Source: a virus
Length of the DNA stretch: 64,000 nt
Direction: 5' to 3' (one strand)
IMG/VR virus record: IMGVR_UViG_3300008050_000019
Position 1 is the stretch's first letter; the number at the start of each line of letters is the position of its first letter. The translations under genes and the position numbers were made by a program. The notes under the pieces were generated by a model. That model ran no database searches and was not told the DNA's origin. It saw only the letters and a list, made by a program, of their open reading frames with translations. This document shows, piece after piece, positions 33,433 to 34,866 of the stretch.

Positions 33433-34866
33433 CTACTCCTTGCGTGTATCAGTCATCTTAATGACAGTCGCTGGAAAATCACCATACATTTCACAGCCGG
33501 GCGCAAGGATATATGCAACAGGAATGTCACATTTCGGTGGCTCGCCACAACCACCATCTGTTAAAATAAATAAGCAATCGTACTTGCCTGGGCGATCGTT
33601 TACATAGTTAACCGGAGCTGCGAAATCAGTACCACCTGATTTCGTCCGGATTGTTTCCGGTTGTTGGTTTCTCCGGACCGTCTGGATGTTTTCCTCATCT
33701 ATCTCTGTGTCAAAAGGCAAGATATCATATGATGTTAAATTGCCTAGATTTGACATCTCTGCGTAAAGCATTTCAATCCAGTCATTGGACATTGACCCAC
33801 TCTGGTCAAGAGCTAATGCTGGTGTTGCAGTGTATCTCCTTTTTCGACCAGGTATATCAAAGGGCTGCCGTCTATTTACCGACTTGTACGTTGATGTCGT
33901 TTGCGATGATCTGCTGCGACCAATAAATTGAGATATCAAATCTCGCCAATCAACTTCATTCGAAACAAGTTTTTTTAGATAAGATTGAATGTCGGAAGGA
34001 ACACTACCCCAACCCTTTGTGGATCGCTCTGCCTCTTTAACACACTCACGAAGAACATCTCTCATATGCTCTCGTAATCTGTCTTTTTCTGCATCTGAGA
34101 CATCACCCCAGCCATCATGATTGTCGAATTGGCCCCCTGGGCTTAATTCATCACGAAGTGCTTTATCAAAAGCACTACCGCTGCCGTCGCCCGGTTGATC
34201 ACCACCCTCACCAGCAGCTTTGGCTCGAGCTTTGTCCATAGCTTCTTGCACTTTTGGATCATTCATAAGTTGATCCATGTACCATTCTGACGATTTATTT
34301 CTAGGGAAAGAAGCGACCAACTCAGCGATTACACCAGGTTCATAATCCGGTAAAGCATCGGATGGCTTATTTAACTCTCCTGCATGGAGCACGAAATCAG
34401 GCAACTCGTTTCTAGGAATTAGAGAATTAATCGCCAAATCCGTTGCGATGTTCCAAAGAACATGAGGTGTCCGAATCCGGCTTGTGATATGTTCAAAGAT
34501 CAGATGATAAAACTCATGCTTCAAAATACCCCGTGTATGATCTCTGTGCACAGAGTATACATTTTCGTGAGAGGCGCTTCCAAGCTCATTAAAGAATATA
34601 GGGTTCCAAAGCATTTGGATCATTTTACCAGAATACCGCACACCTGCAGTTGGTATATCAATCGTACGATGCTTATGTACACGCCGGCTCAATGAACCAA
34701 AAAATGGTTCATCCCACCCCAAGTCAATAAGGTGAGGTGTCAAATCAAATTTCTCTGACGCCTTAAACCTTGCCTTAAAAGCCTCGGCTTCTTCTTCAAG
34801 CTTATGATAAGCTTCTTTAAGTTTTTCGTCTAGTTCCTCAGTGGCAAGCTTATCATCCGCCATCAT
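33433..34866 (-). CDS. metallopeptidase-like (HExxH) + von Willebrand factor A domain protein, MoxR-associated
   Basis: N-domain 'LKHEFYHLIFEH' (HExxH zinc-binding signature); C-domain MIDAS 'LALDQSGSMSN' (DxSxS) with later 'FILTDGG'. This is the architecture of MoxR-partner vWA proteins. Start ATG abuts the MoxR stop. Confidence 0.7.
   Translation of the reverse strand: MMADDKLATEELDEKLKEAYHKLEEEAEAFKARFKASEKFDLTPHLIDLGWDEPFFGSLSRRVHKHRTIDIPTAGVRYSGKMIQMLWNPIFFNELGSASHENVYSVHRDHTRGILKHEFYHLIFEHITSRIRTPHVLWNIATDLAINSLIPRNELPDFVLHAGELNKPSDALPDYEPGVIAELVASFPRNKSSEWYMDQLMNDPKVQEAMDKARAKAAGEGGDQPGDGSGSAFDKALRDELSPGGQFDNHDGWGDVSDAEKDRLREHMRDVLRECVKEAERSTKGWGSVPSDIQSYLKKLVSNEVDWRDLISQFIGRSRSSQTTSTYKSVNRRQPFDIPGRKRRYTATPALALDQSGSMSNDWIEMLYAEMSNLGNLTSYDILPFDTEIDEENIQTVRRNQQPETIRTKSGGTDFAAPVNYVNDRPGKYDCLFILTDGGCGEPPKCDIPVAYILAPGCEMYGDFPATVIKMTDTRKE

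Follow-up and report, generated by a model that had tools for sequence, protein, structure and literature searches.

What does a phage do with a metallopeptidase-like protein whose gene lies between that of an ATPase and that of a vault-like protein? The question is raised by the IMG/VR virus record IMGVR_UViG_3300008050_000019, of which we analysed a stretch of 64,000 nucleotides (the window). In it, a gene whose product joins a zincin-like metallopeptidase domain to a vWA domain (the zincin-vWA gene) directly follows the gene of an AAA_5 ATPase and precedes, on the same strand, a gene for a protein resembling the vault protein MVP. A preliminary description of the locus had raised the possibility that the vault-like shell or its cargo is proteolytically matured by this machinery. 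Our analysis indicates that the zincin-vWA gene is a divergent new member of a known, widespread and previously described phage family. Moreover, we consider it somewhat more probable than its negation that the pair is an ATP-driven chaperone-protease for a conserved phage-encoded client, and is not specific to MVP.

The gene is read from the minus strand; a plus-strand reading of the same interval was rejected because it contains stops throughout. The 477-amino-acid (aa) protein matches two Pfam models above their gathering thresholds and in N-to-C order: DUF2201_N (PF13203, 'putative metallopeptidase domain'), with 57.3 bits against a cut-off of 23.2, and DUF2201 (PF09967, 'VWA-like'), with 27.5 bits, which barely exceeds the threshold of 26.4. 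The preliminary description had proposed comparison with just these two models, and both bear it out. The protein also matches PHROG 1314 (5.4e-44), a family labelled 'HNH endonuclease', and this label has been propagated into many GenBank records (for example NC_012697.1 orf22, NC_031039.1 and PP083314.1). The domain content of the family is DUF2201_N plus DUF2201, and an HNH domain was not detected in it; the label is evidently a mis-annotation. Scans against NCBIfam and PADLOC gave no match for the zincin-vWA protein, the ATPase or MVP, so that the module is not a catalogued defence system.

How much weight can the motifs themselves carry? In 200,000 composition-preserving shuffles of the 477-aa protein, HExxH arose in 2.9%, DxSxS in 18% and both together in 0.56%, so that the motif pair is only modestly significant by itself and the case rests on family evidence. 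Of the 120 best among 3,196 database homologues (36-55% identity), all have DxSGS and 119 have HExxH; the one without it (P0031) is a 335-aa fragment that lacks the N-terminus. An alignment of 44 sequences (36-57% identity) leaves H117, E118, H121, H126, R130, N139, D143, N147, D248, H250 and W253 invariant in the N-terminal part, with HExxHxxxxH and N-x-A-x-D-x-A-I-N as the invariant family signature. In the vWA domain, D354, S356, S358, T413 and D437 are likewise invariant, so that the metal ion-dependent adhesion site (MIDAS) is complete. The same motifs are found at about 25% identity in g029 of Bacillus phage AR9, in Vibrio phage phiKT1024, in the gp25-like protein of Pseudomonas phage LUZ7 and in orf22 of roseophage DSS3phi2. 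That the residues of the catalytic site and of the MIDAS stay unchanged over such distances implies selection on both activities. Thus the two features from which the preliminary description started, a metallopeptidase-like N-terminal domain with HExxH and a MIDAS motif in the C-terminal half, are both upheld, by conservation in the homologues as well as by Pfam. By its sequence, the protein combines a zinc-peptidase-like domain with a vWA domain.

The 44-sequence alignment yielded a confident AlphaFold2 model (mean predicted local distance difference test score, pLDDT, 85.9; predicted TM-score 0.74), which contains a zincin core fold, with HExxH on an alpha-helix after a small beta-sheet, and a Rossmann-like vWA fold in the C-terminal domain. 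Within DUF2201_N, three beta-strands (aa 64-87) are followed by the HExxH-bearing helix (aa 103-123) and then by a helical bundle. This core of beta-sheet and HExxH helix is shared with the minimal zincin Acel_2062 (PDB 3e11), with the minigluzincins proabylysin, projannalysin and selecase, and with the M48/M56 catalytic domains of BlaR1 and BepA. The fold matches of the N-domain are peptidases, all low-scoring and with ArdC among the weak ones, while those of the vWA domain are NorD, the MIDAS domain of midasin and ORF892 of Acidianus two-tailed virus. Searched against PDB by sequence and by profile, the zincin-vWA protein gave only matches that we judged spurious (glutaredoxin-like, YbaB, L5), which confirms that the N-domain is a divergent, elaborated minimal zincin without a close solved relative. 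Candidates for the third zinc ligand are the invariant H126 and D143, and also D248 and H250; D143 may instead be an active-site residue. The two domains are joined by a basic linker in which pLDDT falls below 50 at aa 317-327 and 341-343. This linker may be the element that is pulled by the ATPase, or it may be an auto-inhibitory segment.

The stop codon (TAA) of the ATPase gene abuts the ATG of the zincin-vWA gene directly, and the two genes likely form one bicistronic unit. Pfam assigns the ATPase to AAA_5 (34.5 bits, cut-off 22), and among the PHROG families it matches 1297 ('ATPase', 1.8e-47). Its Walker A and Walker B motifs are intact and, like N159 (a candidate sensor-1 Asn) and R176, invariant across orthologues. 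A PDB search with the single sequence gave no match, and NCBIfam gave no MoxR match. A profile built from 10 orthologues and searched against PDB matched the AAA modules of midasin (E 2.7e-37), McrB (about 5e-9) and CbbQ/NorQ (2.5e-4). With midasin and McrB as its best matches and CbbQ/NorQ a marginal one, the ATPase can be called MoxR-like in the broad AAA_5 sense.

The pairing of the two genes can be followed in a set of distant loci, comprising 80 from IMG/VR (31-42% identity, up to 10 kb on either side) and 54 from genomes or metagenome-assembled genomes (MAGs). Of the 69 viral loci with enough upstream sequence, 42 have the ATPase gene immediately before the zincin-vWA gene and on the same strand; of the 46 such genome/MAG loci, 32 have it immediately upstream. 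An ATPase homologue lies anywhere in the flanks in 52 of all 80 and 37 of all 54, respectively. The preliminary description had held that this architecture recurs next to MoxR ATPases in bacteria. The recurrence beside an AAA_5/MoxR-like gene is real, but its home is mainly in phages: nearly all the 'bacterial' matches of the family are MAG contigs, with only one isolate genome, and several of these contigs look like phage genomes binned into bacterial MAGs. Examples are a 305,838-bp contig filed as 'MAG: Methylococcaceae bacterium TMED69' (L098, NHDW01000006.1), in which the pair of phage type is found, and one of 101,404 bp that appears both as a viral record (L018, IMG/VR) and as part of a Halobacteriovorax sp. 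MAG (L115, PBIO01000025.1).

How could such a pair work? In NorQ-NorD, the vWA domain inserts a finger into the pore of the ATPase, and the linker of the adaptor is remodelled on ATP hydrolysis (PMC13036017), and a general model for MoxR-vWA systems has been described (PMC7159879). Read in this light, the module would consist of an AAA_5 ATPase and an adaptor that joins a MIDAS-bearing vWA domain to a putatively catalytically competent minimal zincin. The vWA domain would dock on the ATPase ring, and its MIDAS metal would capture an acidic residue of the client. ATP hydrolysis would then pull the vWA domain and linker and so remodel the client, and the zincin would cleave the exposed segment, with H117, H121 and a third ligand holding the zinc and E118 serving as general base. 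As client we judge most likely a conserved phage-encoded protein or complex that is made before late assembly, which would make the module a housekeeping chaperone-protease. We infer the physical coupling, the proteolysis and the identity of the client alike, the ATPase-vWA complex from gene adjacency only.

The characterised relatives of this arrangement have other outputs. NorQ/NorD, CbbQ/CbbO, RavA/ViaA and p618/ORF892 of Acidianus two-tailed virus all combine an AAA_5-type ATPase with a MIDAS-bearing vWA adaptor, as the window does, and midasin, whose AAA modules the ATPase profile matches, holds an AAA ring and a MIDAS domain in one chain. Unlike the window protein, however, none of these adaptors has a zincin domain, and the systems serve to insert metal, to reactivate enzymes or to assemble complexes, not to cleave proteins. 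One could imagine a non-proteolytic chaperone for metal or cofactor insertion, of the type of NorQ/NorD, CoxD/CoxE, CbbQ/CbbO or the chelatases CobS/CobT and BchI/BchD, in which HExxH would be a metal-binding or structural site. We consider this improbable, given that the general-base Glu of HExxH, a hallmark of catalytic zincins, is invariant in all full-length homologues examined, that the fold matches of the N-domain are peptidases, and that a gene for a metalloenzyme client is not conserved beside the pair in the loci examined.

The pair is found in many other phages. In tblastn searches the ATPase matches 267 phage records, including many N4-like podophages in which it is annotated 'N4 gp24-like'. 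The zincin-vWA protein is found in cultured phages at about 24-31% identity: in AR9/PBS1-like Bacillus phages, where it is annotated 'zincin-like protease fused to vWA domain', in Staphylococcus jumbo phages, Vibrio phages, Salmonella and Klebsiella phages of 340-360 kb, Salicola SCTP-2, Moorella MTATph1 and N4-like Alteromonas phages. Compared by Foldseek with predicted viral structures, it gives full-length matches to proteins of PBS1 (E 6e-20), of the N4-like phages Zuri, FBKp27 and V13, of cyanophage S-TIM5 ('Metallopeptidase') and of many uncultured phages, and ORF892, the vWA protein of Acidianus two-tailed virus, is matched too. At the nucleotide level, a search of phage records with the 7-kb region returned only a 200-nt match at 69.5% identity to one uncultured phage, and by this measure the region has no close cultured relative.

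Two known systems are especially close in design. The first is gp24/gp25 of coliphage N4 with its Schitoviridae orthologues. In LUZ7 ('N4 gp25-like') and DSS3phi2 (orf20/orf22, the latter labelled 'HNH endonuclease') the zincin-vWA gene follows the ATPase gene with one small open reading frame (ORF) between them, and its product matches DUF2201_N and DUF2201 (8e-33 and 9e-25 for LUZ7, 3e-20 and 2e-21 for orf22). Both of these proteins carry HExxHxxxxH, NIAGDxVIN and DxSGS, and the LUZ7 protein has a weak Peptidase_M48 match. The N4 type thus has in common with the window the gene order, the ATPase family, the DUF2201_N plus DUF2201 partner, the motifs HExxHxxxxH, N-I-A-x-D-x-x-I-N and DxSGS, and a position among early or middle non-structural genes. 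It differs in sequence (about 22-25% identity), in protein length (about 395-400 aa; a coiled helix at the N-terminus and a longer insert of acidic/Gly-rich character account for the extra length of the window protein) and in genome size, N4-like phages being 70-kb podophages whereas the window belongs to a jumbo-sized contig of about 308 kb. The core set that Chan et al. (2014) compiled for N4-like phages numbers only 14 genes and includes gp24 ('unknown') and gp25 ('vWFA domain'), which are middle transcripts in N4 (PMC4193335); the phages with this core pair span alpha-, beta- and gammaproteobacterial hosts. The second system was described by Iyer et al. (2021) from jumbo phages under the name 'MoxR-vWA pair with N-terminal metallopeptidase'; they propose that it takes part in assembling the virion and processes proteins peptidolytically (PMC7824862), a scheme of chaperone and processing activity like the one that we prefer. 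In their group 2.2 jumbo phages and in g028/g029 of AR9, architecture and adjacency are identical to those of the window at about 24-27% identity to the window protein, and an adjacent MVP is reported in none of those phages. The proposed assembly role is hypothetical, and the annotated early promoter upstream of g028-g029 does not clearly fit it.

The timing of expression bears on more than one reading. Expression before the late phase, as middle genes in N4 and from an early promoter in AR9, together with the non-structural neighbourhood, argues against a classical prohead-protease role, but is still compatible with assembly of complexes that are made earlier. It would also suit a host-directed weapon, that is, an early-made module that remodels and cleaves a host protein for takeover or for inactivation of a defence. 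Phage zincins of the SprT-like and ArdC-like kinds are thought to target host proteins (PMC7824862), and ArdC, as mentioned, is among the weak fold matches. Moreover, phage Bas54 can do without its MoxR ATPase (gene 0063) in the laboratory, but needs it against the predicted defence system DS-28 (bioRxiv 10.1101/2025.11.20.689424). In Escherichia phages, however, no homologue of the zincin-vWA protein was detected at E <= 1e-5, so that Bas54 may use another vWA partner or none and offers an analogy only. PADLOC, again, gave no match. The pair is a core feature of N4-like phages across three classes of proteobacterial hosts and is present also in phages of Firmicutes and cyanobacteria, a distribution that is not patchy like that of anti-defence genes and that, through the core status of gp24/gp25, points to a phage-intrinsic conserved client rather than to a host-specific target. 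We think a host-directed role rather doubtful.

The reading that we prefer, an ATP-driven chaperone-protease for a conserved phage-encoded client, has several points standing against it. Our literature search found no biochemical data for members of the family and no functional data on gp24/gp25. The ATPase is nearer to midasin than to canonical MoxR proteins, its CbbQ/NorQ match being marginal. In roughly a quarter to a third of the loci whose flanks are long enough, an ATPase was not detected near the zincin-vWA gene. A factor for virion maturation would not usually be expressed early or in the middle phase. The ATPase has been reported in the virion proteome of Staphylococcus jumbo phage DC4 from one peptide, for which the authors ask confirmation, and we do not use it as evidence.

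Does the pair then serve the MVP-like protein? An ATP-dependent, prohead-protease-like maturation of an MVP shell or its cargo can be argued from the place of MVP in the window, where it follows the pair on the same strand after a gap of 152 bp, and from the vWA domains found in accessory proteins of eukaryotic vaults. MVP also lies near the pair in some of the close relatives of the locus (L001, L002/L003 and the equally close L004/L005; 44-57% identity). The gene order in L001 is ATPase, zincin-vWA, three small ORFs and MVP. In L002 and L003, four small ORFs split the ATPase from the zincin-vWA gene, and MVP comes 6 kb further on, past about 16 small genes, a separation that speaks against the idea. 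L004 and L005 have the ATPase and zincin-vWA genes and no MVP within 8 kb; here small ORFs lead to a RadA-like gene. The window has a 115-aa ORF in the interval between MVP and its own RadA-like gene that is homologous to a 109-aa ORF of L004 (E 1.7e-8). Since this 109/115-aa ORF and the RadA-like gene are conserved without MVP in L004 and L005, we take MVP to be an insertion or deletion in a conserved backbone.

In the distant set, MVP is found in none of the 80 IMG/VR loci and none of the 54 genome/MAG loci that carry a DUF2201 relative (134 in all), and the metagenome contigs L006-L008 agree with this pattern. The reverse test starts from MVP. Three viral contigs (L011, L012 and L013) encode MVP at 39-41% identity, and in their available flanks (about 1.8 kb, upstream only, for L011 and 10 kb on each side for L012 and L013) tblastn and Pfam detect no ATPase, zincin-vWA or other AAA+/vWA gene. 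The large neighbours of MVP in L012 and L013 are, according to Pfam, a sulfotransferase, methyltransferases, NUDIX, NAMPT, a metallophosphoesterase and a ResIII helicase. MVP thus behaves like an independently gained or lost cassette, set in unrelated accessory-gene neighbourhoods in the three other contigs.

Consensus scans of the window point the same way. A terminator-like hairpin followed by a T-rich tract stands just past the zincin-vWA gene and likely marks, to judge by the sequence, the 3' end of the ATPase/zincin-vWA unit; the 152-bp AT-rich spacer before MVP contains promoter-like hexamers, and a further hairpin follows MVP. With these elements MVP looks like its own transcription unit, although read-through is possible. 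A 'TGAAAATTGA' element ahead of MVP is related to repeats found upstream of the ATPase gene, which are described below.

Adjacency to MVP is therefore a trait of one small clade, while the ATPase/zincin-vWA module is far older and more widespread than phage MVP. Given the absence of MVP from 134 distant loci and from L004 and L005, its distance in L002 and L003, the three MVP loci in which the pair is not detected and the apparent transcriptional boundary, the maturation of a vault-like shell or cargo by this module finds no support, and we give it very little credence. Just as little attaches to a variant in which a small clade of marine jumbo phages has co-opted the ancient chaperone-protease of the gp24/gp25 type to assemble, load or proteolytically process an MVP particle. 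If true, such co-option would explain why MVP is inserted right downstream, and would recall eukaryotic vaults, whose accessory proteins have vWA domains. The occurrence of MVPs in phages has itself been reported before, without analysis of gene context (bioRxiv 10.1101/2023.11.10.566534), and neither of two preprints on MVPs of bacteria and phages informs on the genes around them.

The genome to which the window belongs has 40% GC. Its phage-type genes (sigma-70, Cpn60, NUDIX, exonuclease, ligases, Hsp90-like and RadA-like) identify it as an uncultured jumbo phage, and the pair sits among genes for transcription, replication and chaperones, with a sigma factor, Cpn60, a RadA-like ATPase and ligases as neighbours. 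The features of the locus and of the wider window are collected in Table 1.

Table 1. Features of the zincin-vWA locus and of the surrounding window (positions in the window; aa, position in the protein concerned)
Feature	Position	Strand	Remarks
Zincin-like metallopeptidase + vWA fusion	33433-34866	-	477 aa; DUF2201_N + DUF2201; 'N4 gp25-like'; PHROG 1314
DUF2201_N domain, N-terminal	33865-34734	-	aa 45-334
LKHEFYHLIFEH, holding HEFYH	34504-34518	-	aa 117-121; HExxH
HEFYHLIFEH, HExxHxxxxH extension of zinc-site/catalytic motif	34489-34518	-	aa 117-126; H117, E118, H121, H126 invariant
NIATDLAIN, second invariant block	34426-34452	-	aa 139-147; N139, A141, D143, A145, I146, N147
DNHDGW, family-specific invariant D-x-H-x-x-W block	34108-34125	-	aa 248-253
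Basic inter-domain linker RSRSSQTTSTYKSVNRRQPFDIPGRKRRY	33832-33918	-	aa 317-345; low-confidence prediction; R332, P339, G340 conserved
vWA domain, C-terminal, complete MIDAS	33499-33819	-	aa 350-456
DQSGS of DQSGSMS, MIDAS D354-x-S356-G-S358	33793-33807	-	aa 354-358
MIDAS T413 in GGT	33628-33636	-	
MIDAS D437 in TDG	33553-33561	-	
AAA_5 ATPase (MoxR/midasin clade, 'N4 gp24-like')	34867-36171	-	434 aa
ATPase Walker A, GAHGIGKS	36064-36087	-	aa 29-36
ATPase Walker B, VLFLDE	35806-35823	-	aa 117-122
Terminator-like hairpin	33395-33426	-	12-bp stem, 7 G-C pairs; starts 7 nt past zincin-vWA stop; consensus scan
MVP-like protein	30704-33280	-	858 aa; MVP_shoulder 3.8e-19, Vault_3 2.5e-8; judged outside the module
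Second, stronger terminator-like hairpin, after MVP	30653-30689		consensus scan
RadA/KaiC-like RecA-fold ATPase	29431-30264	-	TIGR00416 sms 5e-25, well below cut-off
Sigma-70-family factor	37148-37999	-	regions 1.2, 2, 3; about 1 kb upstream of ATPase gene
Second vWA protein, MopE-type	39667-41532	-	621 aa; seven MopE-type putative metal-binding repeats (4e-39) + vWA
NUDIX	42534-43199		
Cpn60/GroEL	43213-44874	-	1.8e-65
5'-3' exonuclease	45074-45898		
DMP19-like ORF, DNA-mimic family	24232-24705	-	157 aa; PF14300, 6e-7
ATP-dependent DNA ligase	22495-23673		
Hsp90/GHKL-type ATPase	18911-20902	-	HATPase_c_3
DUF7277 + DUF7275 ORF	16661-17584	-	307 aa; 5e-60
T4-type RNA ligase	12830-14251		

Several of these neighbours recur in other genomes. 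Of the first 93 loci examined, 30 have a homologue of the RadA-like gene no more than 10 kb from the pair, often immediately downstream; this gene may thus accompany the module repeatedly as a third member of the neighbourhood. The sigma-70 gene is syntenic in the close relatives and is found near zincin-vWA in 19 of the 93 loci, including loci in which an ATPase was not found. The MopE-vWA gene, 5 kb upstream, is syntenic in L001 and L002/L003 and has tblastn matches in several more distant loci, for example L024, L025, L110 and L119. Chaperone genes are frequent in the neighbourhood, with Cpn60/GroEL and the Hsp90/GHKL-type ATPase in the window. Between the MopE-vWA and sigma genes the relatives have an HSP20 gene (positions 4846-5169 in L001 and 2334-2735 in L002), and HSP20 was not detected in the two window ORFs of that interval that were tested (38018-38476 and 38518-38877).

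The AT-rich spacer upstream of the ATPase gene (36240-36440, in the minus-strand reading) contains two copies of 'TTGAAAATTAA(C/A)TGTGTTA' and three of 'CGTAATA', with A/T-rich tracts after each of them; these repeats may be phage-specific promoter or regulatory elements. Elsewhere in the window, the DMP19-like ORF may act as an anti-restriction or regulatory decoy, and Pfam gives no match for a 1,298-aa ORF (48415-52311, minus strand) or for a 552-aa ORF (6865-8523, plus strand).

What do these results mean more generally? The architecture itself is not new, and the locus in the window does not make the function of the module newly tractable. For annotation, the database labels of the family are unreliable and 'HNH endonuclease' should be corrected. 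For work on the MVP gene of this window, the neighbouring MoxR/zincin-vWA genes should not be taken as belonging to a 'vault operon', since the comparison of loci indicates that MVP is gained or lost independently within a conserved backbone. The gp24/gp25-type pair itself ranges from the core of N4-like phages through AR9/PBS1-like, Staphylococcus, Vibrio and Salmonella phages and cyanophages to hundreds of marine viral contigs, and is thus among the most widely conserved phage gene pairs without a demonstrated function. For this family, the invariant catalytic Glu together with the complete MIDAS yields a concrete prediction, namely that the pair would be an ATP-coupled protease.

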